A stretch of 64,000 bases of DNA from Candidatus Thorarchaeota archaeon (GCA_004524445.1 SDNP01000011.1:4943-68942); one strand, 5' to 3'; shown: positions 8,373 to 39,171, counted from the first letter of the stretch. Numbers and translations are program-made. The notes: generated by a model not told the origin, from the sequence alone.

Positions 8373-8536
8373 ATCTATGACCTCAGATAACAAATCATTA
8401 TTTACTATAGTTAACTTAATATAACACTTCCGCTTCAACTTAGAGTGTGGCTATCTGCTAATGAGATAGAGTTCCAGCAGGAGAGGAGATGAAGAACAAG
8501 GAGTAGATATTGGTCAATCTGGGATTTCTTCAGGAA

Positions 8537-11167: not shown

Positions 11168-11515
11168 TATATGGGCCACTACTCCATACGAAGGAGGTAG
11201 TTCTGGTTAATTGGTCTCTGTCTTCATGCATAGATTGGGGGTACCGATGACGTCATTCTCCCTCGTAGTGTTGAATATAATTGTACACTCATGGCTATTA
11301 GTGTTCTGATTTGTTCTAGCTCATAACAGGAAGCCATTGGAGCCTTAGCTGGTGAGTCGTTTTTGCAGTCAGCACCAATCGAGTAATCATTTCTCCAGCG
11401 AACATCTGATGATTCATTCCCGTCACGTGACATGAATTCATCTCAAAAATGGATGAGGTACCTGAAACTAAAGAACTATTGGTCATCAATCCATTATTAA
11501 CAGGAGGAAAGGCAT

Positions 11516-11901: not shown

Positions 11902-12744
11902 ATGTCCCAAAGGGAGTTCTCTCAAGTGAATTGCCAGAAATATGACACCGTTGACGAATTCCAACAAGAGGTGCTGGAATGGTGGAACGAAAATTCCCGC
12001 CAACTCCCGTGGCGAGAAGATCCAACCCCCTACCATGTTCTCGTATCGGAGGTTATGCTTCAGCAGACACAGGTAAGCCGGGTTGTTCCAAAATACCTAG
12101 AGTTTCTTGAGAAGTTCCCAGATTTCGAGTCACTCGCAAATGCGGATACTAGACACCTCTTACAGGTTTGGAGTGGACTTGGATATAATCGTCGTGCGCT
12201 TTGGTTAAGAAACGCGGCACAGGAGATTCTTAGGAGAGGAGAGTTTCCAAAGGAAGAAGAAGAGCTCAGAGAACTCAAGGGAATAGGGCATTATACGTCA
12301 CGCTCAATACTCATTTTTGCCTTCAATAGAGATTTGGCGACAGTTGATACGAACATACGTAGGGTCCTGATATCCTCGGGTTTTGCCACAGAGGAGATGT
12401 CGAGGTCTGAGGTCCAAGATGTTGCAGAAAGGCTTCTTCCCAAGGGAATGTCGAGAGACTGGCATAATGCTTTGATGGACTACGGTTCCCTAGTGCTCAC
12501 ATCGAATGCAACTGGAATTACTCCGAAATCTACCCAATCGAGGTTCTCTGGATCATCAAGAGAGATTCGTGGAGTAGTGATTCAACTGATGATAGAAAAT
12601 GATGAAATGACAGTGAATCAGCTTTCCTCCGAAATTGAACAGCGAAACCTTGATAGCACTGAACTCATGGAGATAGTTGGTCAACTGGTGGAAGAGGGAT
12701 TCCTTACGTATACGGACTCCGGAACACTATCAATTGCAGGCTAA
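11902..12744 (+). CDS. MutY/EndoIII-type HhH-GPD DNA glycosylase lacking the Fe-S cysteines, with a C-terminal extension
   Basis: LPWREDPTPYHVLVSEVMLQQTQVSRVVPKYLEFLEKFP, GLGYNRRA and the helix-hairpin-helix LKGIGHYTSRSIL with VDTNIRRV are present. The cluster loop reads VLT..PKSTQSRFSGSS. Confidence 0.75.
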   Translation: MSQREFSQVNCQKYDTVDEFQQEVLEWWNENSRQLPWREDPTPYHVLVSEVMLQQTQVSRVVPKYLEFLEKFPDFESLANADTRHLLQVWSGLGYNRRALWLRNAAQEILRRGEFPKEEEELRELKGIGHYTSRSILIFAFNRDLATVDTNIRRVLISSGFATEEMSRSEVQDVAERLLPKGMSRDWHNALMDYGSLVLTSNATGITPKSTQSRFSGSSREIRGVVIQLMIENDEMTVNQLSSEIEQRNLDSTELMEIVGQLVEEGFLTYTDSGTLSIAG

Positions 12745-13813: not shown

Positions 13814-14665
13814 TCATGAATAGTAATCCAGCAGAATCCCCAGAAGTCCAAGAAAGATGAAGATAATGAATGCCTTATTCTCCGAACATTCTCCTAGCGT
13901 GCTTTCATGGACACCTATACCTCCGAGGTATGATTTCCAGAATAGCTCAATTAATGTCACCGGCAGTGTAAAGACAATCTGAATCCATGATAGGGTAGCT
14001 ATCTGATTTTCAAGGATAATCATTGCCAACTCAGGATTAGTGGTATCAATAGTGACTGTTGGAACGAACGTCCAAATGATGAAAATTCCTATCAGACTCA
14101 TAAGCAAGCTTGGTGCATAAGAATATCCCGTTACTGAGGCTGCATCCTCAAAATCCCACGAACTGCCACTGTCACACAACAGGTATGCAAGTAGACTCTT
14201 CACGAGCCAGCGAATAATCATTATGATTGGTACTACAAGGAGCAAGAGCATTAAGATTGAATTCGCTGCAAACGCGATCTCTTGCTCATAGGGTCCAGTA
14301 AACTGGAGCTTTTGAAACATTATGGCGGCAGAGAATGTGCCCATAACAGCACTCAGGACAATGATAAAGACAACACCTACATAGTCAGGGGCAGACGCGA
14401 TATTAGTCATAGCCTTGCGTGGGGAGGTGAAGACTTTTTGTAATCTCTTCCAGAACGGCCATTGCTCGTGGCGTTCAAATTTGCCTGTTAGATTCGTTTC
14501 GAAGCGTTCGGTTCTTTTCATAGACTTTGTATCTTCAAATGATGATATTTCTGCGCCACAGCCTTTGCAGAACTTGTCACCTTGTCTTACAGGGTTGCCA
14601 CAGATGTTGCATCTTCTTGCTGCACCCGGCCTCTCATTCCACGAATGGGGGTGATTCATACCCAA
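13814..14665 (-). CDS. zinc-ribbon plus Yip1-domain membrane protein
   Basis: The N-terminal CNICGNPVRQGDKFCKGCGAE is followed by a 5-TM Yip1-like region. Confidence 0.6.
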   Translation of the reverse strand: MGMNHPHSWNERPGAARRCNICGNPVRQGDKFCKGCGAEISSFEDTKSMKRTERFETNLTGKFERHEQWPFWKRLQKVFTSPRKAMTNIASAPDYVGVVFIIVLSAVMGTFSAAIMFQKLQFTGPYEQEIAFAANSILMLLLLVVPIIMIIRWLVKSLLAYLLCDSGSSWDFEDAASVTGYSYAPSLLMSLIGIFIIWTFVPTVTIDTTNPELAMIILENQIATLSWIQIVFTLPVTLIELFWKSYLGGIGVHESTLGECSENKAFIIFIFLGLLGILLDYYS

Positions 14666-17455: not shown

Positions 17456-17626
17456 CTATATTTTTTGAATCATCTTCTTTCTTTTCTGTAGCTCGTCTTC
17501 TGGCATCTCTTCTATGTCATGAGCTCTTGCACCATGCTTTTTTATCTGTTCAACTGTATCCTCCATTGTTTCGGCGGATATTACAGCATCGCACATCTGA
17601 CACTTGAATTCGTATGGCATCATCAT
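17456..17626 (-). CDS. DUF1059-like small metal-binding protein (absent from the ORF track)
   Basis: Hand translation gives MMMPYEFKCQMCDAVISAETMEDTVEQIKKHGARAHDIEEMPEDELQKRKKMIQKI. This fits the F-x-C-x-x-C...E.l...v..H....H pattern of DUF1059. Confidence 0.6.
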   Translation of the reverse strand: MMMPYEFKCQMCDAVISAETMEDTVEQIKKHGARAHDIEEMPEDELQKRKKMIQKI

Positions 17627-17871
17627 TCACTATTGTTATTTTATCGAGGGGGTTTTTAGTCCTTGGGAATCAATACGCGGATTCAAGTCAAGTTTGGGAT
17701 AATACCTATTCAATGTGGAATAGAATAGCAATAACCTACAGAGCACTACCACGGGCGATTCCGAGCAGATGTAGGACATTTCTTTTCTGCACAAATTTTC
17801 AACTCCGGAAACCATATACACAGTTTACTTATCTCCGGAAAAGCTCAATACAGAATTGGTGGACTGAAACG

Positions 17872-20118
17872 ATGCCTAGTTTAAGGCGAGAAGAGGCTAG
17901 AATCGTAGTTGGTATTTTAGTCATAATGGGGTTCTCATATGTCTTCTTCATAAGTGATCCACCCTGGCAGACGCACGGCTCAGCTCTAGCATATCACTCT
18001 ATCTTGGGATTCCTATCTGTTGTAGCAGTTGCATCAGCAACGAACAGAGTCATAATGGATCCTACTCCGGCTCATAGAGTGTTTCTTGCTGCAACAGGAT
18101 TTCTTTCGATTGTACATCTTGGAGCGGCTTTGATACATATGATGCCCGTAACTGAAGCCGTTGCACATACTGAACCAAAGGGAATCTTCGTGGATATTGT
18201 GGAGATGGGCATTCTTGGCCTAATGCTGTTGGTAGCAGCCTATCTGAATAGCGAGCCACTGAAAGAAAGGCCATTATGGAACAAGAGAACCACAACCTTT
18301 GGGCTACTAGTCATTTCCTTGGGCGTATATGGTGCCGCTGCATTTGTATCGGAGCTCCCTGCCCTCTCGGTTTTTCTAGTTGGGGGCGGCATTTCTATCG
18401 GATTTTTGGCTTTAGTAGCATTTGTTCTCTCATGTTTCTTCGCTTTCAAGCGTCCTGCAGACAGTTCTTCTCATGATAGGAAGCGACTGATTGTTTCCTA
18501 TCTCTTTTTCAGCCTATCAACAACCATACTTCTATTGGTGCTACCGTTTCCCAATAGTCTTTGGTTGCTCACAATAATTCTTCAGGCAGGCGCACTCATC
18601 TTCATCCTTTTTGCAACTGGATATCCGTTTCTACTCGATGTTGGACTTCAGGAAAATGTGGCTTACTCCTTCCTCGTTGCACTTGCAGCTCTGGTAGTAA
18701 CGCCTTTCATCCTCGCCCATCTAGTCGAAGCATGGTTACCTGTTTTGTCTTATGAGAATAGACCTCTCGGCCTCATTGCACATGCTTCGGCTGCAATGCT
18801 ATCTGGAATAGCAGCTTATATTTTGACAGAACGACTCAAGGATAAGACACCCTGGTATGACGGCCCAGCTATATTTGCGCTACTCTCATGGACAGTTTTA
18901 GAATCCATTGTTGTTGGCTTACGCATATTTCAGCCAAATGATATTGTTATTGAGTCAGTGCTACCGTATCTGTTTGGAGGGGTCATTACTTCCGTTGCGC
19001 TATTAATTGCCATTCGCCGGACTCTCCAACCACCTCCCGAGGGAACGGCCCAAGAGCACTCGCATGTCAGACATGTTTCATTGCTGGGTATCATGATTGT
19101 GACTTTGTTGGTTGAAGGCACTCTAGTCATGAGTCCATCATTACATACGCAGGTACAGAACTCACCCATCATATTGGCACTTTTACTCGTTGTTGGTTAC
19201 ATTTCTGTCCTAGGGATTATCGTCTTTGGTATGTTGCGGACTGCACAGACCGGAGGAATATATTCAGTTGAAATCATAGCAGTAGGATCTCTAACACTCT
19301 GGGCGATTTCTCAAATATTGAGAGTCAACTTCTCGATTTTTACTGCCGGGTGGTGGGCTGCAGAACTCCTGCTATTCGTAGTCTTCTTATTCCTTCCCCC
19401 TCTGATCACTCAACTGTATGTTGAAAAGTACCATCTGGAGAAACGCTTGGAAACTGCTGCAAAAATCTATACGAATCTTCTAGTTGATAAGATTGACCAC
19501 CACCATAGACAATCTTTGGATTCTCTCAGTGGAATACTAAGTCATGTGGGGCTCAAAGGCAAGGAGATGGAAGGGATTTCCAGGGCCATGACCGAGGTTT
19601 CCCGTGCAAATGACATAGCTCAAAGGTATGATACCATAGTCAAAGGTGGGGTACCCGATATTAAGGAAACGGGGACCATCGGTTTACATGATGCATTGCA
19701 GACTGCCTTCGAACAAGTGTGTCAGATTCATCCTCATGTGCCAAAATTAATGCTAGGCGCCTGCTCAGGAGATTGTAAGGTATGGGGAGAGAAAATAGTT
19801 GTTGACCTATTCTACAATCTGCTGGAAGGGCTTCTAACGAGGATTCATGCGAATTCTATTTCTGCAAAGATCGAGAGATGCACATCTGATATGTGGTGTG
19901 CTACTATTCAGATAGGCATTGAATCTGATATTCAGGGTTCTTTGAGCCATCTTATCAGTCGATATCTGTTTCAAGTCAGAGAAAGCAATATTGAGTTTCT
20001 TCTGGTTAATGAATACATACGACTACTAGGAGGGGATGTGGTTGTGGTCGATCCCAAGAAAGAAGACATCCATAATGCAATCATCATGACGGTAAGACTG
20101 CCAGCAGTCAATCCGTAA
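17872..20118 (+). CDS. polytopic membrane sensor with a HisKA-like H-box and a degenerate HATPase-like C-terminal domain
   Basis: GGTGGA lies 8 nt before the ATG at 17872. About 14 or more hydrophobic helices are followed by DHHHRQSLDSLSG (H-box-like), then VVDLFYNLLEGLL and a terminal alpha/beta region without G1/G2 glycine boxes. Confidence 0.7.
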   Translation: MPSLRREEARIVVGILVIMGFSYVFFISDPPWQTHGSALAYHSILGFLSVVAVASATNRVIMDPTPAHRVFLAATGFLSIVHLGAALIHMMPVTEAVAHTEPKGIFVDIVEMGILGLMLLVAAYLNSEPLKERPLWNKRTTTFGLLVISLGVYGAAAFVSELPALSVFLVGGGISIGFLALVAFVLSCFFAFKRPADSSSHDRKRLIVSYLFFSLSTTILLLVLPFPNSLWLLTIILQAGALIFILFATGYPFLLDVGLQENVAYSFLVALAALVVTPFILAHLVEAWLPVLSYENRPLGLIAHASAAMLSGIAAYILTERLKDKTPWYDGPAIFALLSWTVLESIVVGLRIFQPNDIVIESVLPYLFGGVITSVALLIAIRRTLQPPPEGTAQEHSHVRHVSLLGIMIVTLLVEGTLVMSPSLHTQVQNSPIILALLLVVGYISVLGIIVFGMLRTAQTGGIYSVEIIAVGSLTLWAISQILRVNFSIFTAGWWAAELLLFVVFLFLPPLITQLYVEKYHLEKRLETAAKIYTNLLVDKIDHHHRQSLDSLSGILSHVGLKGKEMEGISRAMTEVSRANDIAQRYDTIVKGGVPDIKETGTIGLHDALQTAFEQVCQIHPHVPKLMLGACSGDCKVWGEKIVVDLFYNLLEGLLTRIHANSISAKIERCTSDMWCATIQIGIESDIQGSLSHLISRYLFQVRESNIEFLLVNEYIRLLGGDVVVVDPKKEDIHNAIIMTVRLPAVNP

Positions 20119-27445: not shown

Positions 27446-30400
27446 TTGATAGTCCGTAGGCGGTTCTTTGCCGTCACTATTATGGCTCTACTCTCGCTTT
27501 ATGCTGTGGGGAGTATAGCTAAAAGTTTCGTGAATACGGGACAATCTGAGAGTATTACGCCGAGTTCCGAATTCTTTGATGAAACTCGCTTACGAAAGGA
27601 AGATGATTCTTCTGATTCTTTGTCGAAATACTCATTGTCTGACTCTGCACTCACCGGCACTCTGGACCCTGTAGAAGTTGAACAATCTGGATTCATAGCG
27701 ACAGGAAGCACATTTGCAAGAACAGACAATAGTTTCAATACAAATACTACACTCGGGATTGATAGGGCAAATGGATGGTTGGCTAGCCAAGCAGAAGCAC
27801 AAGTGTGGGGTCTTGAGAGAAGGTACGCTATTAACGGGACATTTGACGATGGCATACCTGGAACGTACGCTATGGTAAATGAAACTCCTGTCTACTATCC
27901 GTATGGTTGGAGCCCGAGCTACACCACTACAAACACTGGCCAAGCACAAGTAGCCGGATACGATGATTCAGGATATGCAATCTTGGAAAATCAAGGAAAT
28001 AAGGAGGGCCCGAGTGGGAACAAGTATACACATTATGCTGGCACGAAGATTCTCTGGAATCAAGAAATCACCAATCAGCCCTACACAAAGAACTTCACAC
28101 TAAACCTGAGATATCTGTACTCAAGAGGCCCCTTGGGTTCAGGAGTTCCTGGAGATTGTTCACTATCAGTGTTTGTCAATGATTCAGTAGTCTGGAGTCA
28201 GGCACTCCCTGATGTCGCAGGAAGGGGAATATGGATAGAAACTGGTGAAATTCCAATCAATATAGCAGATGCAGGAAATACCCTAGAATTTGCAGTTGGT
28301 ATTGTGATAGATGAAACAATGGCTTTGAATGCCGAGGAGGATTATAACGGGGATGAAATGGCAGAGGGGATCTCAAATACAGTCTATGTCACCGTCAATA
28401 TCGATGAAATCTCCTTTGTGGGCCTAAATCCCCCCTCATTTGAAGAAGTTGATTTTAATTTTTCCGCGGGCAATCAAACCACTTCGGTCACAGGTGCGTC
28501 TGGCAATGGAACTGCACTCATTTCCAAGAGTGACTATTGGTCTGTCGAGCAGTTGGACATTGCCTTTACTTCTAATGTCAGCGTATCTTTCAATTATGAT
28601 GCCTATTTACTCGAGCACAGGTTCCTCAACTCCAGCTTCACAACTAACACACATCAATTTGGTGTGAAGTACAGCATCTCGCATAATCAAAGTGCAAACC
28701 TCGAGTTATTCACATATGTTGGAACACAAGGCGAGTTTTTGGAATTCAACGTAACGATCAGGTATCCTACAGATTGGGAAAATGCAACTATCTACTCCCC
28801 GTTCTCAATCGATGTGACGACACAATGTCAAATAACGGAGGGTGAAGTGCGTATTCCAACAAGCCTTCTGGAAGATTTGGGTTGGTGGGATGTGGAGCTT
28901 CAGTCGCCAAATTATGCAAAATCTCTCAAAACCCAGATATATGACGATTCGACAGGCTGGACGGATGCTGTACTATTTAGGCCAGGAAACACAACCAGAA
29001 CATCAGTAGAGATAGGTACAACAGTAGAAACACCATCCATCTCTAATCCTGTAAATCTAACATGGTATCTGCCTAATGGTACTATTTGGTGGGATGAATC
29101 GACTACATCCGGAACTGCGGGATCTTTGAATTCTAGTCCAGTAGCGTTCGGCCCGACCAATACGACAGCCGGACCATGGAGCATTGAGATAGTTTGGTCA
29201 AACGGAACAGAAGTGGCTTATTCTTCCATTTCGTTTGCACTATATCATCAAGCCACCTTGACCCCCGTTTATAGCTTAATCGAGGGCGACGTTGATGAAA
29301 CAATCACCAACGTTCTGCGATTTGAAGACATATATTCTGGAGATTATCTGATGGCCGATGATGCTAACGTAATCGGCAATTGGTCTGGCACTTGGGTAGA
29401 TTTCATCCCCAACGTTGTAAAGAATTGGTGGGAGGGAGATTTCGATACTACAATTGTTGGCGGCGGGAACTTTACCGTACTTGTAAATGCGTCAAAGCCA
29501 TTCTATGATGATACAAGTTGCTTGTTCCAAATCACTTCCATATATGCCACTGAAATGCAAACTGATGCTCCCTCTGATGTCCCAGCAGAAATCAATTTCA
29601 ATGAACACTATTTGGTCAATATATCGTACAATCTCTCAAATGGCACTGGCATTGTAGATGCGACGATTGGTGTTGATTATACCGGACCAACGGGTGGACT
29701 GGACATAGATTCTCCAGTTCCTCAAACAACAGGAGAATACCAGCTAGAAATAACAGGACGCCAAACAGGAACGTATGTCATATCAATCGAGGCGTCAAAG
29801 GATTTCCACCACAGTCAAACTGATTCATTCACCCTAGAGGTATTAGAGGCGCCTACCACGCTCACTCAATTGAATGGTACAGCGGATTCTGTCAGATATG
29901 GTCAGGATTACAGATATGTCGTCAAATATGAGAATTCATCAGGAATCGGTCTAGAGAGTGCAGATATTAGTATAAGTAGCATAGACCCCTCAGTGGGCCT
30001 TGGTTTCAGTCCCACATCTGAGATCGGCGGGGGTTACTACTCTATATTGTTTAGCCCAACAGATACCTCAACATTCACAATTGTAGTCAAAGCAAACTTA
30101 TCAAACCATCAGACTCGCTTTGTCACTTTTACACTAACGGTATCCACTGTGCCAACTACATTGGCTTTGAATGCTACAAGCGAAACAATCTCCATTCAAG
30201 AGGTATTCGTTTTAGGACTAACCTTCATGGATGATTCTGGAGCTGGCATTCCTGGTGCGACTATCACAGCCCAAAACCCACCGGCCGACCTTCATATTTC
30301 ATCGGCGACTGATTATGGTGATGGAAACTATTCGATAGTCATAGATCCATTCTATTTCGGGACCTATCTACTCACTTTCTCTGCGTCCAAAACAAACCAT

Positions 30401-33304
30401 CAAACTGCAGCAAACTCCTTTTCGCTGATTGTTGACTCTGTCGGAACATCTTTGCTTCGACCAAACGGAACTGCAGACTCAATTTCATTTGGCGAAGACT
30501 ACCACCTCTTTGTAAGATATGTCAATAGTTCTGGATACGGCATAGAGGGCGCCAGTATTTCGGTGGTAGATACATCTCCTGAAACAGGGCTTGCCATAGG
30601 GGCTACCCAGGACGAAGGCGATGGATTTTACTCGATTCTTCTCTCGCCTAGCTTAACAGATACCTATAATCTGGTGATTGAAGCTAATTACACCAATCAC
30701 AAAGTGCAATATGTTACCTTCACTCTAACCGTCAACGATATACCAACTTCATTATTCCTGAACATATCGAGTATAACCATCTCCGTAAATGATCAGCTCG
30801 TAGTTGGGCTTATATTTGAGGACGAGTCCGGGACAGGCGTTCCAGGGGCGGTCATCACTCCACAGAGTCCTCCATCTGAACTTTCATTCTCCGCCACCAC
30901 TGACTATGGTGATGGTAACTACTCATTGGTTATCAATCCGATTTATTTTGGAAATTACCTACTAACGTTTTCAGCATCTAAAGCAAATTATCTAACGGGA
31001 TATGACTCATTCTCACTAACCGTTGATGAAGTAAACACAGTTTTGTTGCGGCAAAACGGAACAGCGGATTCCATCAAGTTTGGTGAAACCTATAATCTTG
31101 TTGTGAGATACGAAAATAGCTCGGGATATGGTATAGAGGGCGCATCTATCTCAATCTCCAGCATATCACCCGAGGAAGGCTTAGAAATTGGAATCACAGA
31201 TGATCTCGGCGATGGCTACTACTCCATTCTGCTAACTCCCACAACCGCTGATACATATACACTTGTAGTCAAAGCAAATATTACAAATCATAAGGTTCAG
31301 TTCGCCACGTTTTCCCTAACTATTAGTGAAATCCCAACTAGTCTAACTCCCTCACCGTCGAGCGCAACAATTGCTGTTGATTTGATGCAGACGGTTCTAC
31401 TCACATTCGAGGATGAGGAATCCAATGAGATAGAAGGTGCTACGATAACTGTACTGAACCTTCCTGATGGCCTGACCGTTTCGCAAATCGAAGAGGTGGA
31501 TAATGGGGTCTACCGTGTCATTCTTGACCCCAATGATGTCGGCACCTATTCGCTATCACTAAGGGCGACTCTCGTCAACTATCAAAACTCGACAGTTGGG
31601 TTCAGCCTGACGGTAAGAGAGATTCCAACTGACTTGTTGTTCATGGGTGGTGGTTCAGCAGCATCCGTAAACTTCTCTGACCCCTACACGCTAGAGCTGA
31701 TTTATGCAAGAACAGACCTTGGGGAGAATGTAACTGGAGCGACCATCAATATCACAATAAGCCAAGCAAATGGACCAGATTTCACTCTCACAACTCTTGG
31801 TGAGCTATACGCGATAACATTTGATACTTCAATTACTGGTTCTTGGACCATCACTATCCAAGCCGGTAAAGAGAATCATGAGAAGAAGAGTCGTGAATTC
31901 CAGTTGGCCATCGAAGCTGTTGAAACTAGCATTACAGATATCACATTGCAGGATGAGCTACTCTACGACCATACGTATGTATTCGATTACTATTACCTCA
32001 TTGATTGGAATAACACGGGCATCGACCAAGCTCATGTGACAGTGTCCGGAATTGATGCTGATTGGGTAGAGGTAATACCCAAGGGAGACGGACTTTACAC
32101 CATTAGTCTGACACCAACAAGCCTAGGACGACACTCGGCAGCCTTTCTTTTTGATAAGCCAGGTTATGTCAAGCAAAGAACAACTCTTCGTTTTGATGTG
32201 GAACAGGTAACAATCGGTATCGAAATCCTTAGTGAGCTCTCAGGCAATGCCGAATCTACCAAGACGTTAGAGCTCAGAATATACGAAATTGATAGCGGAA
32301 ACGCAGTTTTGAATGCCACCGCAACGTATCTTGTTATAGGATCTGAGAGTGGTTTGCTGGAACAGGGATTATTTACTGAAATGGGAGATGGTATCTACCG
32401 CGCCACATTCGCGATGCCTCCGGCAGATGATGAGGGTTATAGCTTAGAAGTCACCGTCAATAAGCCAAATCATGTGTTGGGTGCTTCGTTTGGCACATAT
32501 TCATTGAATCCCTATCTTAGTCAGGACCAAGTCTTGAATCAAATCATTCGAACATATGTTATTCCGCCAGCGGTGTTGGTGGTAGGTCTTATAGTTGCTT
32601 ATGGGGGATATCTTATCTACAGGAGAAGGAGAAGGGATGAAATCATCAAGCAGAATATTATCAAGAATATATTCAAGGATGCACAGAATCTCCTTGGAGC
32701 CTTGATACTCCATAGGAAGAGCGGAGTTCCTCTATATTCACGCATTATTAAAGGAGGCTTGGATGAAACGGTTGTTTCTGCATTTATTACCGCCATAACC
32801 CAGTTCAAGGCAGAATTCGACTTGGAAACAATTGGTGATGAATATGATGTTACCCCCATCTCAGATTTGATACGAATTGTACCCACAAGGAATTTGATAT
32901 GCGCATTCATCGTATTGAGAGACCCCAGTGAGCGACAGAAGCAAATGATGAAGGAATTCGCTCGGCAAATTGGATTCATTTGGGATGACATATATCAAGA
33001 CACACCATCCGAAATTCTTGATGATGCATCCAAGCGTCAATTCGATGAGTTATTCGATAACCTGTTAGATGGATCATTATTGAAGACTCACAAAATTGTT
33101 GATGAAAATGAGTTGCCTAGGCGAATGAAGTGTGTGCAAGAGGGTCTGGATAGAATTGATGAGGATCAATTCGAATTGCATGACTTGGCACAAGAGATTA
33201 CAGCTTGTGGACTTGAAGAGGGAAAGGCCTACAGCGTAATCATGGACGCATTACAAAACAATGTGATAATAGAGAAAGACGATGGGTCCTCCTCCAGTGA
33301 GTAG
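27446..33304 (+). CDS. giant (1952 aa) type-I surface protein: signal peptide, N-terminal beta-rich region, Ig-like repeats, one TM helix, and a cytoplasmic longin/roadblock-like plus winged-helix-like tail
   Basis: The signal peptide is MIVRRRFFAVTIMALLSLYAVG. Sequons are very abundant. Two-domain units of 197 aa occur in tandem. The TM helix VIPPAVLVVGLIVAYGGYLIY is followed by RRRRRD (32558..32640), then a cytoplasmic tail of about 225 aa. Confidence 0.85.
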   Translation: MIVRRRFFAVTIMALLSLYAVGSIAKSFVNTGQSESITPSSEFFDETRLRKEDDSSDSLSKYSLSDSALTGTLDPVEVEQSGFIATGSTFARTDNSFNTNTTLGIDRANGWLASQAEAQVWGLERRYAINGTFDDGIPGTYAMVNETPVYYPYGWSPSYTTTNTGQAQVAGYDDSGYAILENQGNKEGPSGNKYTHYAGTKILWNQEITNQPYTKNFTLNLRYLYSRGPLGSGVPGDCSLSVFVNDSVVWSQALPDVAGRGIWIETGEIPINIADAGNTLEFAVGIVIDETMALNAEEDYNGDEMAEGISNTVYVTVNIDEISFVGLNPPSFEEVDFNFSAGNQTTSVTGASGNGTALISKSDYWSVEQLDIAFTSNVSVSFNYDAYLLEHRFLNSSFTTNTHQFGVKYSISHNQSANLELFTYVGTQGEFLEFNVTIRYPTDWENATIYSPFSIDVTTQCQITEGEVRIPTSLLEDLGWWDVELQSPNYAKSLKTQIYDDSTGWTDAVLFRPGNTTRTSVEIGTTVETPSISNPVNLTWYLPNGTIWWDESTTSGTAGSLNSSPVAFGPTNTTAGPWSIEIVWSNGTEVAYSSISFALYHQATLTPVYSLIEGDVDETITNVLRFEDIYSGDYLMADDANVIGNWSGTWVDFIPNVVKNWWEGDFDTTIVGGGNFTVLVNASKPFYDDTSCLFQITSIYATEMQTDAPSDVPAEINFNEHYLVNISYNLSNGTGIVDATIGVDYTGPTGGLDIDSPVPQTTGEYQLEITGRQTGTYVISIEASKDFHHSQTDSFTLEVLEAPTTLTQLNGTADSVRYGQDYRYVVKYENSSGIGLESADISISSIDPSVGLGFSPTSEIGGGYYSILFSPTDTSTFTIVVKANLSNHQTRFVTFTLTVSTVPTTLALNATSETISIQEVFVLGLTFMDDSGAGIPGATITAQNPPADLHISSATDYGDGNYSIVIDPFYFGTYLLTFSASKTNHQTAANSFSLIVDSVGTSLLRPNGTADSISFGEDYHLFVRYVNSSGYGIEGASISVVDTSPETGLAIGATQDEGDGFYSILLSPSLTDTYNLVIEANYTNHKVQYVTFTLTVNDIPTSLFLNISSITISVNDQLVVGLIFEDESGTGVPGAVITPQSPPSELSFSATTDYGDGNYSLVINPIYFGNYLLTFSASKANYLTGYDSFSLTVDEVNTVLLRQNGTADSIKFGETYNLVVRYENSSGYGIEGASISISSISPEEGLEIGITDDLGDGYYSILLTPTTADTYTLVVKANITNHKVQFATFSLTISEIPTSLTPSPSSATIAVDLMQTVLLTFEDEESNEIEGATITVLNLPDGLTVSQIEEVDNGVYRVILDPNDVGTYSLSLRATLVNYQNSTVGFSLTVREIPTDLLFMGGGSAASVNFSDPYTLELIYARTDLGENVTGATINITISQANGPDFTLTTLGELYAITFDTSITGSWTITIQAGKENHEKKSREFQLAIEAVETSITDITLQDELLYDHTYVFDYYYLIDWNNTGIDQAHVTVSGIDADWVEVIPKGDGLYTISLTPTSLGRHSAAFLFDKPGYVKQRTTLRFDVEQVTIGIEILSELSGNAESTKTLELRIYEIDSGNAVLNATATYLVIGSESGLLEQGLFTEMGDGIYRATFAMPPADDEGYSLEVTVNKPNHVLGASFGTYSLNPYLSQDQVLNQIIRTYVIPPAVLVVGLIVAYGGYLIYRRRRRDEIIKQNIIKNIFKDAQNLLGALILHRKSGVPLYSRIIKGGLDETVVSAFITAITQFKAEFDLETIGDEYDVTPISDLIRIVPTRNLICAFIVLRDPSERQKQMMKEFARQIGFIWDDIYQDTPSEILDDASKRQFDELFDNLLDGSLLKTHKIVDENELPRRMKCVQEGLDRIDEDQFELHDLAQEITACGLEEGKAYSVIMDALQNNVIIEKDDGSSSSE
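29845..31617 (+). repeat. three in-frame tandem copies of a 591-nt (197-aa, two Ig-like domains) coding unit
   Basis: The N codon of the (L/P/Q)-NGTADS motif sits at 29873, 30464 and 31055. That is an exact 591-nt period, and the protein units are clearly alignable. Confidence 0.85.
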
Positions 33305-33336
33305 GACGTAACATACTCCACACAGGAATGGTTCTA

Positions 33337-33591
33337 CTCCGCCCATTGAGTTTTTGAGAATTCTATTGCATCTGTGACTCCCTGTGTGAAATCCTCAGAC
33401 TCGCATTCCAAGGTGTACATCACGAATCCGTCATAAGCAAAGAAATGCATTCATCGTACGTGATAGACTATATCTGGTTGCGCAATCTGGATGAGGTCAA
33501 GGAACTCTCTTTTTCTGAGTTTTACGCGATAAGAACTGGTATGTGCCATTGCAGCTGCTGTTACTCCTGCACCACCTCCTGAATACGCCAT
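33337..33591 (-). other. small ORF (46 aa) continued in frame after a single TGA by a further 38 aa
   Basis: GGTGA lies 9 nt before the ATG at 33591. Hand translation gives MAYSGGGAGVTAAAMAHTSSYRVKLRKREFLDLIQIAQPDIVYHVR-TGA-MHFFAYDGFVMYTLECESEDFTQGVTDAIEFSKTQWAE-TAG. Confidence 0.3.
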
Positions 33592-33744
33592 GTTCTGGGT
33601 TCACCTTCTGAATGAGGTTGCGTTTCGATAGACAATAATTGCTGTCAGCGTAAAGTGGCAATTAACGAATTAGGTGTGGGATTATGGTGGGGGTTATCCT
33701 AAAATCTAAATTCCCCTGAAATAAGGTGATAGTGAGGAAAGGAT

Positions 33745-34809
33745 TTGGTCAGCAAAAAACAACTCGATACTCTTGATGCCCGCATGATCCATGATGCGCT
33801 TTTACAGCAACAAGAAGATCGCGGCATCAGATGTCTCACCTGCAGTCATCGTTGTGTAATTCCCGAGGGTAAAACTGGAATCTGTGATACCCGTGCAAAT
33901 ATCGATGGTACAATCAAGACCTTAGTTCATGGAAACATATCTTCTCTGAGCAGTAATCCTGTTGAAAAGAAACCTTTCTTTCACTTTGCACCAGGTACGA
34001 CAGCGTTTACCGTGGGAAGCTGGGGGTGCAACGCATCTTGTGAGTTCTGCCAGAATTACTCAATATCCCGTGCTTCACCCGTTTCCAAGTCATCACGCTA
34101 CCTGAGTCCAGAGGGGTTCATAGATGCAGCTCAACAGGAAGGAGCGGAGGGTATCTCCGTTTCATTCAATGAAGCGGCAACCCTTATGCTGGAGTGGAAT
34201 ATGGAGGCCTTCAAAATCGCACATGAAAGAGGGTTGTATAACACCATAGTATCCAATGGTTACATGACAACACAGGCACTTGATGCGTTGATTGATACGG
34301 GTCTAGATGCTGCAAATGTGGATATGAAAGGATGTGGACCCGCAGTCAGAGAGATATGTGGCATCACAACCGAACCAGTTTGGGAAAATATCATCCACAT
34401 GAAGGAAAGAGGAGTGCATACAGAAGTCACTACACTGGTTGTGCCTGGACTCAGCAATGATGAGGAATGCTTGGAGAGTATTGCGTCACGTATCAAAGAT
34501 GATGTTGGCAAGGAAACACCATGGCATTTGAGCAAATATTTTCCTACGTATAAATACGATGAACCGCCAACCCAACTTAGCACTCTGCTAGCAGCTCGGA
34601 ACAACGGACGAGATATCGGGCTGGAACACGTCTATATTGGAAATGTTAGGGAACCAGGTCTCGAAGACACAATCTGTCCCAGTTGTGGAAAAATCTGTTA
34701 TGAAAGAAGAGGGTATCTCTCAAGAAACACCGGAACGGATCAATCTGGACAGTGTGACAAATGTGGCTATGACCTTGGTATTAAATTCTGGCCGTCCGAA
34801 GAAGAATGA
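33745..34809 (+). CDS. AmmeMemoRadiSam system radical SAM enzyme
   Basis: CLTCSHRCVIPEGKTGICDTRAN and the radical-SAM cluster motif GCNASCEFCQN are present. There is also a C-terminal CPSCG...CDKCG. Confidence 0.9.
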   Translation: MVSKKQLDTLDARMIHDALLQQQEDRGIRCLTCSHRCVIPEGKTGICDTRANIDGTIKTLVHGNISSLSSNPVEKKPFFHFAPGTTAFTVGSWGCNASCEFCQNYSISRASPVSKSSRYLSPEGFIDAAQQEGAEGISVSFNEAATLMLEWNMEAFKIAHERGLYNTIVSNGYMTTQALDALIDTGLDAANVDMKGCGPAVREICGITTEPVWENIIHMKERGVHTEVTTLVVPGLSNDEECLESIASRIKDDVGKETPWHLSKYFPTYKYDEPPTQLSTLLAARNNGRDIGLEHVYIGNVREPGLEDTICPSCGKICYERRGYLSRNTGTDQSGQCDKCGYDLGIKFWPSEEE

Positions 34810-34832
34810 AGCCGTAAGAATGGTGTCGAGTA

Positions 34833-35444
34833 ATGTGGTTCATCATATCGTTAATTGGTGCTCTAGTTCTCATGCCGTTGCATTTCATCTCGGTTGAGCA
34901 TCAGAAGCTTGAGAAGCGATTTGGAGAACATAGGGGCCGAAGATTGGGAAATATTATGGGAATCATATCAGGATGGGGGTACTTCATATTTCTCTCTGGT
35001 CTATGGTTATCTCCTCAACCGAGGTTATTCCTGCCAATGGAAGTAATAGGCAGATTCTCAATTCCCATAGTTGGCATAGAAACCTCATTGGTCAGTATTA
35101 TTCTTGGTTTCCTATTTCTGTTGCCCGGTGCATGGCTTGGGTTGCGTGGCGTCATAGATCTAGGGCTGTATGTGTCAGAAACCCACAGACCAGAGAAACT
35201 TGTCACAACAGGGATATATCAGAAAATAAGGCATCCACAATATCTGGGTGCAATTCTCTCTCATATAGGGATTAGTATAATGCTCTCATCCTTATACTCC
35301 ATTCTAGTGACACCTGCTCTCATGATTCGAGACTTTCTCATATGTAAGAAGGAAGATAGTGAGCTGGCTAAAGAGTTCGGGACGGAATATGAGGACTATC
35401 AAGACAAAGTCCCCATGTTTCTCCCGAACAAGAGCTCAGAGTAG
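34833..35444 (+). CDS. isoprenylcysteine carboxyl / phospholipid methyltransferase family membrane protein
   Basis: LVTTGIYQKIRHPQYLG ... EDSELAKEFGTEYEDYQDKVPMFLP is present. Confidence 0.8.
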   Translation: MWFIISLIGALVLMPLHFISVEHQKLEKRFGEHRGRRLGNIMGIISGWGYFIFLSGLWLSPQPRLFLPMEVIGRFSIPIVGIETSLVSIILGFLFLLPGAWLGLRGVIDLGLYVSETHRPEKLVTTGIYQKIRHPQYLGAILSHIGISIMLSSLYSILVTPALMIRDFLICKKEDSELAKEFGTEYEDYQDKVPMFLPNKSSE

Positions 35445-35479
35445 CACAAACCTGGATGCCTATTGGCAGCCATTATAGG

Positions 35480-35845
35480 CTAGTCTATGCCAATTTTGGA
35501 CGCCACTTTTACCAACACAAATGCAACAAATGCGATTATGATGAAAGTGACTAACTCACCAGCGAATGCACCAACTCCGAATGGCCCAATGGCAATCGCT
35601 TGCCAATCAACCTCGGGAAGTACGAGTTCAACTATTGGCATGACAATGTGGTCAACCAAAGCGCTAACGACATTTCCTAAGTAAATTGCAAGGATGAAAG
35701 CTACAGCAAGCCCAAGAACCTTGTACTTCTTCAGAAATGTCACAAATTCGTCTACGAAGTTGTCAGGGGGTTCTGGAGGAGGTGCGGGAGTGAGGAGTTT
35801 CCGTATTTCTCTCAATTCTTCTAAAATCTGGTCGTCTGTTGCCAT
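35480..35845 (-). CDS. mscL: MscL-like large-conductance mechanosensitive channel
   Basis: FVDEFVTFLKKYKVLGLAVAFILAIYLGNVVSALVDHIVMPIV is present, followed by a second TM segment. Confidence 0.6.
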   Translation of the reverse strand: MATDDQILEELREIRKLLTPAPPPEPPDNFVDEFVTFLKKYKVLGLAVAFILAIYLGNVVSALVDHIVMPIVELVLPEVDWQAIAIGPFGVGAFAGELVTFIIIAFVAFVLVKVASKIGID

Positions 35846-37309: not shown

Positions 37310-38371
37310 ATGGCAACTGAGCCGATAAGAAATGACGAATCAATGTTGAAGGAGGTCTTCTTGATAGATGAGGGCCTACTTCAGTTTCATTATAGCAACG
37401 ATTCTTCGGCCAGCGAGGATGATAAGGCGGTTCTTTCTTCGGGGCTGCTCACCGCGTTGCAGGACTTTAGCAGCCAAGCAAGATCTGGATCTCTGGAATC
37501 TTTTCTGACAGGTGATGAGTACTTTCTGTTTACAAAATGCCCAGAAACCGACAGAGTAGTTGTGGGAGTTTTTCATCGATTGGCTCCAGAAGAATTAGCT
37601 CGCGAGTCTCTTGAGAGGATTCAAGAGGTATTCAAGAGCGCTGATATCCCTGATGCATCCGGAAAACAACTGCCGGGTGATGAAAAACAAAGGCTCAGGA
37701 ACCTCATAAAAGAGATAGGCATTCATCTATTTGACAAAGAGTATTTCGAACTGCATATTGAAGAGCTGTTGAAAAATAGAAGCGACATCCCCTTGGCATT
37801 TCTTGTAGATACTACAGACAATTCGCTAGTTACACACTTTGCCCGACCCAAGCCACTCTTTCGGAAGAGCCAGCTGGATGATTTCCGTCTACTCTATTCA
37901 ACTCTAGAAAAATCTCTAACAAGCCTTGGTATTGCCACTGAGTATTCCTATTTCATAATCAAATCACAAGGCTATTCAGCTGCTTCATACAACTCAGTTC
38001 GATTTGCAAGCGTCGCTAGTGGAGCTATGAGAATCGATTCTGATGCGGTATTAGATGTCGCCATAAAAATGTGTGTTCCATCCGGTGAAATCCCGGATAT
38101 GGCAGATTTAGACCAAGGAGAAATAGAAGGCGTTTCGCTGTTATTCAATAATGGAATCCTGAAGCATGAGAGGGGAGAAAGACTTCCGTCTATGAGCCAA
38201 GTATATCTCTCGACTCTTGTCAATAATGCTGATGCGTTCTTCAAATCAGTCAATCGACGGGTCTTTACGAGATTCGATGTGTTCGGAGGAATAGCCCAAC
38301 CAAAGAGCATATCATTAATCCGAGAAGGGGATGGTAAGTCTCTAAGAGTCGAAATCAGACGTTTTCAATGA
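37310..38371 (+). CDS. protein with three tandem longin/roadblock-like modules
   Basis: GGAG lies 10 nt upstream. Three consecutive segments (aa 13-110, 158-255, 270-350) each show the order strand-strand-helix-strand-strand-strand(-helix). See the findings for detail. Confidence 0.6.
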   Translation: MATEPIRNDESMLKEVFLIDEGLLQFHYSNDSSASEDDKAVLSSGLLTALQDFSSQARSGSLESFLTGDEYFLFTKCPETDRVVVGVFHRLAPEELARESLERIQEVFKSADIPDASGKQLPGDEKQRLRNLIKEIGIHLFDKEYFELHIEELLKNRSDIPLAFLVDTTDNSLVTHFARPKPLFRKSQLDDFRLLYSTLEKSLTSLGIATEYSYFIIKSQGYSAASYNSVRFASVASGAMRIDSDAVLDVAIKMCVPSGEIPDMADLDQGEIEGVSLLFNNGILKHERGERLPSMSQVYLSTLVNNADAFFKSVNRRVFTRFDVFGGIAQPKSISLIREGDGKSLRVEIRRFQ

Positions 38372-38430: not shown

Positions 38431-39171
38431 ATGGAACAGACACCTAAGAAAATGACTTCAGATGATGAAGGCTCGCAGTTGGACGCTGTATTCCTTTACA
38501 TGGGGATTCTCGATGCGTATGAAGCTGTGGGAGTTGAGTTGATAGGGCCGGATGTCCTCGAGAATCATGTTCTCCCTCGAATGGTATACTATGTTAGAGA
38601 GTTCTTACCTGAGGTGTTCTCGGATCGTGCCAACGAACAGGATTTAGCTGCTGAACTACAGGCATTCTTGACGAACTTTCGTCAACGCGTTGATGATGCA
38701 CGTGGATCTGGAACAGCTGAGGGTTTGAACATGGAAGGCATATGGAAATTGAGAGCTGCCATTTTTGGCTATGAGAGTGTCTTCATCAACATTCTGGGTG
38801 AGGCAGCAATCAGGGATTATGTGTTCATACGAATAGCCGACATTCTTTCGGCCTATTTACCCGATAACCTTTTGGATCCGAATAGCCCCTTGGAAAACAA
38901 ACTGCGAGAGTATGCCAAATTTCTAACGGATCATGATTTTGTAAAATTTGCACGGGTAGAATCCAAGGGAGATACTATAGTAGTTGCAACCAACAACTGT
39001 GCATTTTCAAGAATCCACGATTCAGAAGCATACACAAACCTGAATGTGCGATTCTGTCCGTGGGGGATGATTGGTTCAGCAATCGTAGCAGCCCACGAAG
39101 GCAAAGAAACAGTTCTTGAGTCGAGCTTGTTCACCACAAGAGGAAGTGTAAGTAATATCGCAAAGAAATGA
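38431..39171 (+). CDS. V4R / Bet3(TRAPP)-like domain protein
   Basis: A helical N-terminal part is followed by DTIVVATNNCAFSRIHDS..NLNVRFCPWGMIGSAIVAAHEGKETVLESS. This is V4R-like but lacks the distal Cys pair. Confidence 0.5.
   Translation: MEQTPKKMTSDDEGSQLDAVFLYMGILDAYEAVGVELIGPDVLENHVLPRMVYYVREFLPEVFSDRANEQDLAAELQAFLTNFRQRVDDARGSGTAEGLNMEGIWKLRAAIFGYESVFINILGEAAIRDYVFIRIADILSAYLPDNLLDPNSPLENKLREYAKFLTDHDFVKFARVESKGDTIVVATNNCAFSRIHDSEAYTNLNVRFCPWGMIGSAIVAAHEGKETVLESSLFTTRGSVSNIAKK

Follow-up and report, generated by a model that had tools for sequence, protein, structure and literature searches.

A giant surface protein of a Candidatus Thorarchaeota archaeon ends in a conserved cytoplasmic module with a predicted longin/roadblock-superfamily fold

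The 64,000-nucleotide stretch of a Candidatus Thorarchaeota archaeon genome analysed in this study (GCA_004524445.1, SDNP01000011.1:4943-68942; hereafter the window) contains a 5859-nt open reading frame (ORF; 27446..33304, + strand) which encodes a protein of 1952 amino acids (aa), and which has a syntenic ortholog across Thorarchaeota metagenome-assembled genomes (MAGs). As predicted from its sequence, this giant protein is a type-I membrane protein composed of a signal peptide, approximately 1680 extracellular residues, one transmembrane helix and a 227-residue cytoplasmic module (the tail), and structural modelling places the latter in the longin/roadblock superfamily. All coordinates given below are those of the window and, for the parts of this gene, lie on the + strand.

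Hydropathy analysis revealed just two hydrophobic segments. The first (residues 6-25, MIVRRRFFAVTIMALLSLYAVGSIA) directly follows MIVRRR and is signal-peptide-like, the putative signal peptide as a whole covering residues 1-26 (MIVRRRFFAVTIMALLSLYAVGSIAK; 27446..27523) with RRR preceding its hydrophobic segment. The second (residues 1705-1725, VIPPAVLVVGLIVAYGGYLIY; 32558..32620) is followed by RRRRRDE, a cluster of charge +5, which predicts a cytoplasmic location for the C-terminal 227 residues. The single-pass layout fits both hydropathy and charge (positive-inside), and the same layout, with an equivalent transmembrane helix upstream of the tail, is present in 109 of the 111 tail family representatives for which enough upstream sequence is available. 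An initial annotation, made from the DNA sequence alone, had proposed one transmembrane helix, the stop-transfer sequence RRRRRDE and about 225 cytoplasmic residues; this was borne out, as all quoted strings were found in place, and the topology derives additional support from the distribution of NxS/T sequons. Forty-four of these occur in the ectodomain, where 20.9 +/- 3.8 were expected from composition-preserving shuffles (a 2.1-fold enrichment that was reached in 0 of 2000 shuffles), while the tail contains none, an observation that is uninformative because just 0.8 would be expected.

The ectodomain is rich in Ser, Thr and Asn, and poor in Lys and Arg. Its N-terminal part (residues 27-504; 27524..28957) has no recognisable family, producing no Pfam, NCBIfam or PDB sequence match, and is succeeded by a beta-sandwich or immunoglobulin (Ig)-like repeat region (28958..32473) delineated by Pfam matches, internal repeats and sequon enrichment. 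The Pfam families matched by the ectodomain are all beta-sandwich families (CarboxypepD_reg, 3.8e-17; Invasin_D3, 2.4e-9; Filamin, 2.9e-9; MG2, 1.7e-4; and Big_1). Residues 505-590 form an MG2-like stretch, while residues 716-1676 consist of approximately ten modules of about 98 aa, paired as 197-aa double units, and together with the Pfam matches these repeats support the Ig-like repeat ectodomain that had been described in the initial annotation. The internal repeats are 26-65% identical, with the value of 65% found between two central double units, and they are detectable at the protein level only, a DNA tandem-repeat finder having returned nothing from the ectodomain-coding DNA. The giant protein resembles archaeal type-I (S-layer-type) surface glycoproteins in its signal peptide, its very large beta-sandwich ectodomain with potential N-glycosylation sites and its C-terminal transmembrane anchor, and differs from them in that it ends in a conserved 227-aa folded cytoplasmic module.

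The tail was modelled using AlphaFold2 with a 29-sequence alignment, which yielded a predicted local distance difference test (pLDDT) score of 81.9 and a predicted template modelling score (pTM) of 0.81, with all five models at pLDDT 80-82; a single-sequence model (pLDDT 45) was unusable. In the model the stop-transfer RRRRRDE is followed by a conserved juxtamembrane helix (together residues 1726-1748; 32621..32689), the helix itself spanning residues 1727-1748 (model residues 2-23, pLDDT 86-93) and running straight into the first strand of a b-b-a-b-b-b-a core (residues 1749-1846; 32690..32983) whose assignment to the longin/roadblock superfamily is based on AlphaFold2, Foldseek and hhalign. 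The predicted elements of this core are strands at 1749-1756 (LLGALILH) and 1762-1767 (PLYSRI), a helix at 1774-1790 (ETVVSAFITAITQFKAE), a short strand at TP 1803-1804, strands at 1809-1813 (IRIVP) and 1817-1823 (LICAFIV), and a helix at 1829-1846 (ERQKQMMKEFARQIGFIW). These seven elements match, one for one, the strand-strand-helix-strand-strand-strand-helix order of the initial annotation, from whose list the juxtamembrane helix, which carries the conserved motif RFDDxxNxxG and belongs to the domain, was absent. Beyond the core lie an acidic helical linker (residues 1847-1891; 32984..33118; net charge -9), predicted to form two helices and one strand within residues 1860-1884 (helices 135-148 and 151-154 and strand 156-159 in model numbering), a small winged-helix-like end (residues 1892-1943; 33119..33274) and a disordered acidic and Ser-containing C-terminus (KDDGSSSSE) with the stop codon (33275..33304; pLDDT <50 for model residues 222-227). 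On the opposite strand a 124-aa antisense ORF (32617-32991, - strand) lies wholly within the conserved tail-coding region and is most likely a spurious shadow ORF.

Comparison of the tail model with the PDB using Foldseek returned roadblock/longin proteins for all 50 listed matches, at probabilities of 0.87-1.00 except for one at 0.63. The best E-value (2.7e-4) was obtained with the C-terminal domain of Gtr1, and other matches included Roadblock 1-3 from the Asgard archaeon MK-D1, LAMTOR, dynein LC7 (DYNLRB), AP sigma and mu, zeta-COP, a TRAPP subunit, VAMP7 and Ykt6, while Sec22b aligned over approximately 125 columns with a template modelling (TM) score to target of 0.66-0.69 and a root mean square deviation (RMSD) of 3.4-3.8. 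In the viral library BFVD the top matches were giant-virus longin SNAREs, and profilin was also retrieved. The modest Foldseek E-values, the high RMSDs of many matches, the shallow alignment behind the model and the lack of a Pfam or PDB sequence match for the tail might be taken to signify that the assignment is a modelling artefact and that the tail is an unrelated alpha/beta domain. This is very unlikely, however, since the five AlphaFold2 models agree, both structure libraries give the same superfamily with nothing else near the top, profile comparison provides independent support through a Fuz_longin_1-like protein (see below), and the same order of elements had been derived in the initial annotation from the sequence by itself. 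The cytoplasmic longin/roadblock fold put forward in that annotation is supported by these data, and the superfamily assignment of the tail is, on the modelling evidence, sound. It holds at the superfamily level, as roadblock and longin are not separable without model coordinates: roadblock is favoured by the N-terminal helix and by the best Foldseek E-values, longin by the TM-scores and by the sequence bridge.

Concerning the sequence relationships of the tail, searches of Pfam, NCBIfam and PDB sequences with the tail, 32 family members and the family consensus identified nothing significant. MAPKK1_Int was matched by one of the 32 members (E 0.031), while Robl_LC7 and MAPKK1_Int were left unmatched by the other 31, the tail and the consensus. 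The putative sequence link to longins is transitive, leading from the tail to a free-standing Asgard protein of 136 aa and from there to Fuz_longin_1, with no direct Pfam match. This 136-aa protein (L026:19354-19761), whose gene lies a few kb from that of a divergent family member, was aligned with the tail profile along the core, strand 1 through its final helix (95 columns; hhalign probability 78%, E 1.9e-5). In Pfam it matches Fuz_longin_1 at E 1.9e-5 and 25.3 bits, just below the cutoff of 26.1, and Longin at 0.0048, while its best PDB sequence match, Mon1, is not significant. The tail family was also in register with human DYNLRB1 (sequence verified against 1z09_A) over a1-b1-b2, including the G-x-P hairpin, although this match is weak (hhalign probability 5%). 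Nothing was found when the tail family was compared by hhalign with LAMTOR2 or with the DDRGK/PCI-like repeats of the distant homolog P0152, which is described below.

Employing a profile of five close homologs, a search of 1.84 billion proteins retrieved at least 158 cluster representatives of the tail family at E<=1e-3, of which 88 reached E<=1e-30, a recurrence that lies well outside what chance would produce. The match is nearly always located at the very C-terminal end of a protein of 1000-2300 aa. The distance from the end of the transmembrane helix to strand 1 is approximately 31 residues (interquartile 30-34), and among the 111 representatives the median net charge after the transmembrane helix is +4 and a median of 16 residues lie beyond the module. 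With respect to five full-length orthologs the tail is 44-47% identical compared to 37-40% for the ectodomain, making it the best-conserved part of the protein. The strongest conserved tail motifs are RFDDxxNxxG, HKxSGxPxYS, SAFITAIxxFRxEF, PISD, LxCAFIT, LFDxxLDGxLL and CGxEE: in the juxtamembrane motif, more fully K/R-R-F-D-D-x-x-N-x-x-G, the D, N and G are 82-96% conserved, the core contributes HKxSG-x-P-x-YS, SAFITAIxxF(R/K)xEF, PISD and LxCAFIT, and in the linker motif LFDxxLDGxLL the F, D and L are 86-93% conserved. All named members belong to Thorarchaeota or unclassified Promethearchaeota, so that on these members the family is restricted to Asgard archaea, and in NCBI they are annotated as 'hypothetical protein' or 'carboxypeptidase regulatory-like domain-containing protein'.

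A broader hidden Markov model (HMM) constructed from 106 tails identified divergent Promethearchaeota subfamilies in which the module is complete and is joined by a further C-terminal extension of approximately 90 aa. A soluble distant homolog of the whole module, without a transmembrane helix, is present in P0152 (605 aa, from a 2.1-kb ENA contig; residues 367-574), where four or five winged-helix repeats (with PCI, DDRGK and E3_UFM1_ligase matches) come before it and a zinc ribbon comes after it. A short 'standalone' homolog of 205 aa (L001) was first read as a free soluble module, a reading that was subsequently rejected. Such short tail copies in two assemblies (L001 10001-10618 and L021 2070-2669) are located between an ArsR-type helix-turn-helix (HTH) gene and a P-type ATPase gene, and carry different internal deletions of the longin core: P0171 retains the end of the transmembrane helix and the juxtamembrane helix and is devoid of b1-b2-a, and P0002 lacks four helix residues. 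Since they share this one context and differ in their deletions they represent truncated derivatives and provide no evidence for a free module. A third contig (L022 1-260), which is 83% identical at the nucleotide level to window positions 32795-34811, loses homology at the same helix (ITQFKAEF), and this shared break may reflect a recurrent breakpoint or an assembly chimera.

The last 50 or so ordered residues of the tail are predicted as H-b-H-H-b (helices at 1892-1903, 1911-1920 and 1925-1937, a short strand at 1909-1910 and a strand at 1941-1943) at pLDDT 84-90, with a hydrophobic pattern typical of HTH-like sequences. The winged-helix appearance of the extreme C-terminus, as proposed in the initial annotation, is therefore consistent with the order of secondary structure and the sequence pattern, while the fold class is unconfirmed, profile comparisons with HTH proteins (including AsnC-type) having reached a probability of <=2%. 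Were this region a genuine winged helix, the giant protein could be a membrane-tethered transcription regulator that binds DNA at the membrane or after proteolytic release, a proposal with which the HTH-like pattern and a weak match of one of the 32 family members to a Crp HTH model (E 0.029) would agree. We consider it very improbable, given that the region is acidic (net charge -7 in the 1952-aa protein; family median -3; median -2 for the putative recognition helix), that no HTH profile match is significant and that the fold class itself lacks confirmation. The acidic character argues against DNA binding and, if the end is a winged helix, for a protein-binding role, and the region is thus probably a protein-binding rather than a DNA-binding module. 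Elsewhere in the window an HhH-GPD DNA glycosylase (11902-12744, + strand) has a 45-aa HTH-like C-terminal extension (residues 231-275) that weakly resembles the helices closing the tail module, by hmmsearch at E 0.03-0.07 and by hhalign at a probability of 1.8%.

Comparison with characterised systems places the tail between several of them. Like roadblock/LC7 domains (Pfam PF03259 clan) it has, in the model, the order a-b-b-a-b-b-b-a with a five-stranded sheet, including the N-terminal helix, as well as a G-x-P hairpin that is in (weak) register with that of DYNLRB1, and its best Foldseek E-values are to the Gtr1 C-terminal domain and the MK-D1 roadblocks; unlike them, it is without a Robl_LC7 or MAPKK1_Int profile match and has no cognate GTPase encoded nearby in its ortholog group. 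As in Ragulator, the domain would be held at the membrane, although by its own transmembrane helix behind a 1700-aa ectodomain rather than by lipidated LAMTOR1. Longin domains (those of the SNAREs Sec22b, VAMP7 and Ykt6; the first longin domain of Mon1, Fuzzy and HPS1; AP sigma, zeta-COP and the TRAPP subunits sedlin and sybindin) include the matches with the highest TM-scores, Sec22b and VAMP7, and the 136-aa protein provides the sequence bridge to this group via Fuz_longin_1. The longin SNAREs likewise possess membrane-anchored cytosolic longin domains; these proteins are, however, tail-anchored, with an N-terminal longin domain, a C-terminal transmembrane helix and no ectodomain, an order that is reversed in the giant protein, whose tail moreover has no SNARE motif and has, compared with the longin order b-b-a-b-b-b-a-a, an extra conserved N-terminal helix that is roadblock-like. 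A conceptual parallel is offered by the actinobacterial conservons, which link a membrane sensor with a roadblock protein and with a small GTPase (PMC4316618; PMC13343842). Conservons distribute these functions over separate operon-encoded proteins (the sensor histidine kinase CvnA, the roadblock protein CvnB, CvnC and the small GTPase CvnD), whereas the giant protein joins a sensor-like ectodomain and a longin/roadblock domain in one polypeptide, and the conservon families (sensor kinase, roadblock, DUF742 and small GTPase) were not found in the window by Pfam.

The longins with GTPase-activating protein (GAP) activity, namely NPRL2/NPRL3 of GATOR1 and FLCN/SMCR8, resemble the tail in combining a longin-type domain with a small C-terminal domain that is helical and possibly a winged helix, and in that Gly and Pro are conserved at the b1-b2 hairpin. 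GAP longins (FLCN, NPRL2, SMCR8, C9orf72) are characterised by a GP motif at the start of strand 2 and an arginine finger (PMC12290439), a signature which the tail family does not display, and they differ further from the giant protein in the latter's membrane anchor and ectodomain. In Asgard archaea the roadblock/LC7 superfamily accounts for 130 asCOGs with much domain shuffling, and a family with an NPRL2-like longin and a C-terminal domain occurs in most Thorarchaeota MAGs (Liu et al., 10.1101/2020.10.19.343400); identity of the tail with this NPRL2-like family received no support from hhalign comparison with NPRL2.

The genomic context of the closest ortholog group, retrieved through a narrow-alignment search, was examined at 18 orthologous loci from species-representative genomes, all 18 of which derive from Candidatus Thorarchaeota or Promethearchaeota MAGs. 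Orthologs of the giant protein at 33-39% identity share common neighbours at these loci, comprising an upstream ORF with multiple transmembrane segments, MscL, a PEMT-like methyltransferase, a TspO-like gene on the other strand, EndoIII, flavodoxin and ABC transporter genes. Elsewhere in Thorarchaeota (L003-L019) the order is MscL(-), PEMT(+), giant gene(+), TspO-like(-). The window departs from this order over 33745-35845, where the giant gene is separated from the TspO-like gene by a radical-SAM gene (33745-34809) together with PEMT and MscL, and the position of these genes downstream of the giant gene rather than upstream indicates a local rearrangement.

Among the divergent family members, the gene of the Thorarchaeotal P0110 is divergently adjacent to a gene for a 182-aa Rab/Ras-like GTPase, itself co-oriented with a PAS-HATPase kinase gene (L025 3692-5327), and that of P0105 has directly upstream of it a gene for a 399-aa Ras/Roc protein, beside which lies a leucine-rich repeat (LRR) gene (L028 5637-7681). 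In a further context (L029) a GTPase is encoded 4 kb away, while GTPase genes are absent from the contexts L020, L023, L024, L026 and L027. A GTPase is consequently an immediate neighbour in 2 of approximately 9 independent contexts, for which the chance is approximately 0.05 by a rough estimate that assumes some 2% of genes to encode GTPases, and this adjacency is suggestive, though weak, evidence of a GTPase link. The initial annotation had recommended a check for adjacent small GTPases, and the outcome is divided: none accompanies the gene in the window or at the 18 orthologous loci, and they do stand beside two divergent members. Some additional neighbours of divergent members were also recorded. 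An LRR protein gene (L027 12805-13917) is immediately downstream of one of them, L028 is also flanked by genes for other giant surface proteins, one of 4769 aa that matches Laminin_G and one of 2660 aa whose FG-GAP matches are faint, and directly downstream of P0155 a 190-aa protein (L023 16022-16594, + strand) has a zinc ribbon and a weak match (E 0.0017) to HTH_NPRL3, the C-terminal HTH of the GATOR1 subunit NPRL3.

Longin and roadblock dimers serve as GTPase platforms in MglB, Ragulator, Mon1-Ccz1, TRAPP and GATOR1/FLCN (PMC10933270; PMC12290439; PMC4316618), and it is from these functions that a role for the tail is extrapolated. We propose, with a confidence that is evenly balanced, that the tail acts as a membrane-fixed platform which the transmembrane helix would hold near the inner face of the membrane, which would probably dimerise as longin and roadblock domains do, and which would recruit a cytoplasmic partner, most plausibly an Asgard small GTPase or another longin/roadblock protein, thereby coupling the surface protein to intracellular organisation. 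A receptor function and a GTPase-regulatory function are what we infer from this analogy: the protein may transmit a signal, as a receptor would, or may do no more than place a GTPase module beneath an adhesin at the surface.

A number of observations weigh against this interpretation. No Pfam roadblock, longin or NPR2 model matches the tail at E<=1, hhalign comparison of the tail family with NPRL2 gave no match, the conserved hairpin reads S-G-[LVI]-P, a G-x-P motif whose Gly and Pro are separated by a single residue, rather than the GP of GAP longins, and the near-invariant Arg after the helix (FRxEF, 88% conserved), the candidate arginine, is a Lys in the 1952-aa protein. The model itself was built on 29 fairly close sequences, with a pLDDT of just 60-66 in the b2-a region. 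Furthermore, Pfam analysis of all ORFs of >=120 aa and several shorter ones found no small GTPase, roadblock or longin gene in the 64-kb window, and none was detected within 10 kb at the 18 orthologous loci by a motif scan and phmmer with two Asgard GTPases.

The GTPase-free orthologous contexts are in keeping with the main rival, in which the giant protein is a structural surface-coat or adhesin protein whose tail merely anchors, oligomerises, spaces or ties it to the cytoskeleton without a GTPase. Each locus holds a single syntenic ortholog, whose neighbours include housekeeping membrane genes (MscL, PEMT, TspO-like) but none for signalling, the heavily glycosylatable, repeat-rich ectodomain resembles archaeal S-layer or surface glycoproteins, and longin and roadblock domains are good dimerisers. 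The tail is, however, conserved above the ectodomain and its invariant polar or surface-type motifs (SGxPxYS, FRxEF, PISD) exceed the needs of a spacer, GTPase genes are adjacent to two divergent members, and the archaeal surface glycoproteins known to us have short tails or PGF-CTERM signals rather than a 227-aa folded module. On balance we regard a purely structural role as possible though doubtful. A bolder version of the platform proposal, namely an Asgard-specific outside-in coupling in which a membrane-proximal longin/roadblock dimer under a giant adhesin directly recruits or regulates a Rab-, Arf- or Rag-like GTPase, appears unlikely at present; if true, it would constitute a one-polypeptide prokaryotic forerunner of membrane-anchored GTPase platforms such as Ragulator and Mon1-Ccz1, and of receptor-to-GTPase signalling.

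The 353-aa protein encoded 4 kb downstream of the giant gene (37310-38371, + strand) had been connected to the tail in the initial annotation through a match of the helix SAFITAITQF to SGLLTALQDF in its first module. This match is present, with four of the ten residues identical, but it is not significant, and the link did not find statistical support in BLASTP (E 0.66 or worse), in a search with the tail HMM (no match) or in hhalign (probability 0.35% with the single sequence and 3% when the two families were compared). The protein represents a separate conserved hypothetical family (approximately 340 aa; 59 matches) with members in MAGs of Thorarchaeota, Hodarchaeota and Hermodarchaeota, and its gene and that of its 246-aa neighbour (38431-39171, + strand) are absent from the syntenic loci of other Thorarchaeota, neither product having a Pfam, NCBIfam or PDB match. 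The N-terminal 100 residues of the 353-aa protein present a b-b-a-b-b-b-a-like pattern and may be longin-like in structure. Also in the window is a gene for a membrane protein that has a Yip1 domain and, at its N-terminus, a zinc ribbon (13814-14665, - strand), for which no link to the giant gene was seen; Yip1 proteins interact with Rab GTPases in eukaryotes. Three large ORFs of 851, 880 and 834 aa (5883-8438 and 8537-11179, - strand; 17614-20118, + strand) have weak Lamin-tail and Big_13 matches or none and are devoid of the tail module, and these may be other surface proteins.

The initial annotation had considered a receptor architecture of this kind to be undescribed, and our literature searches, which included the main papers on Asgard roadblock, longin and GTPase proteins, likewise found no description of a transmembrane-anchored longin/roadblock domain behind a giant ectodomain. 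With at least 158 clusters, the tail represents a domain family without annotation, new to databases that list its members as 'hypothetical' or 'carboxypeptidase regulatory-like', and residues 1726-1952 provide a defined bait for finding a GTPase or other partner. In Asgard archaea the longin/roadblock proteins and the small GTPases have undergone a large expansion that is poorly understood, their targets and their route to membranes not being known, and Asgard Rabs are without prenylation tails, those proteins that were tested having failed to reach membranes in eukaryotic cells (PMC10933270). A family in which the longin/roadblock domain is welded to a transmembrane helix under a very large surface protein would offer a concrete and testable route for anchoring such a platform at the plasma membrane and connecting it with the cell surface.

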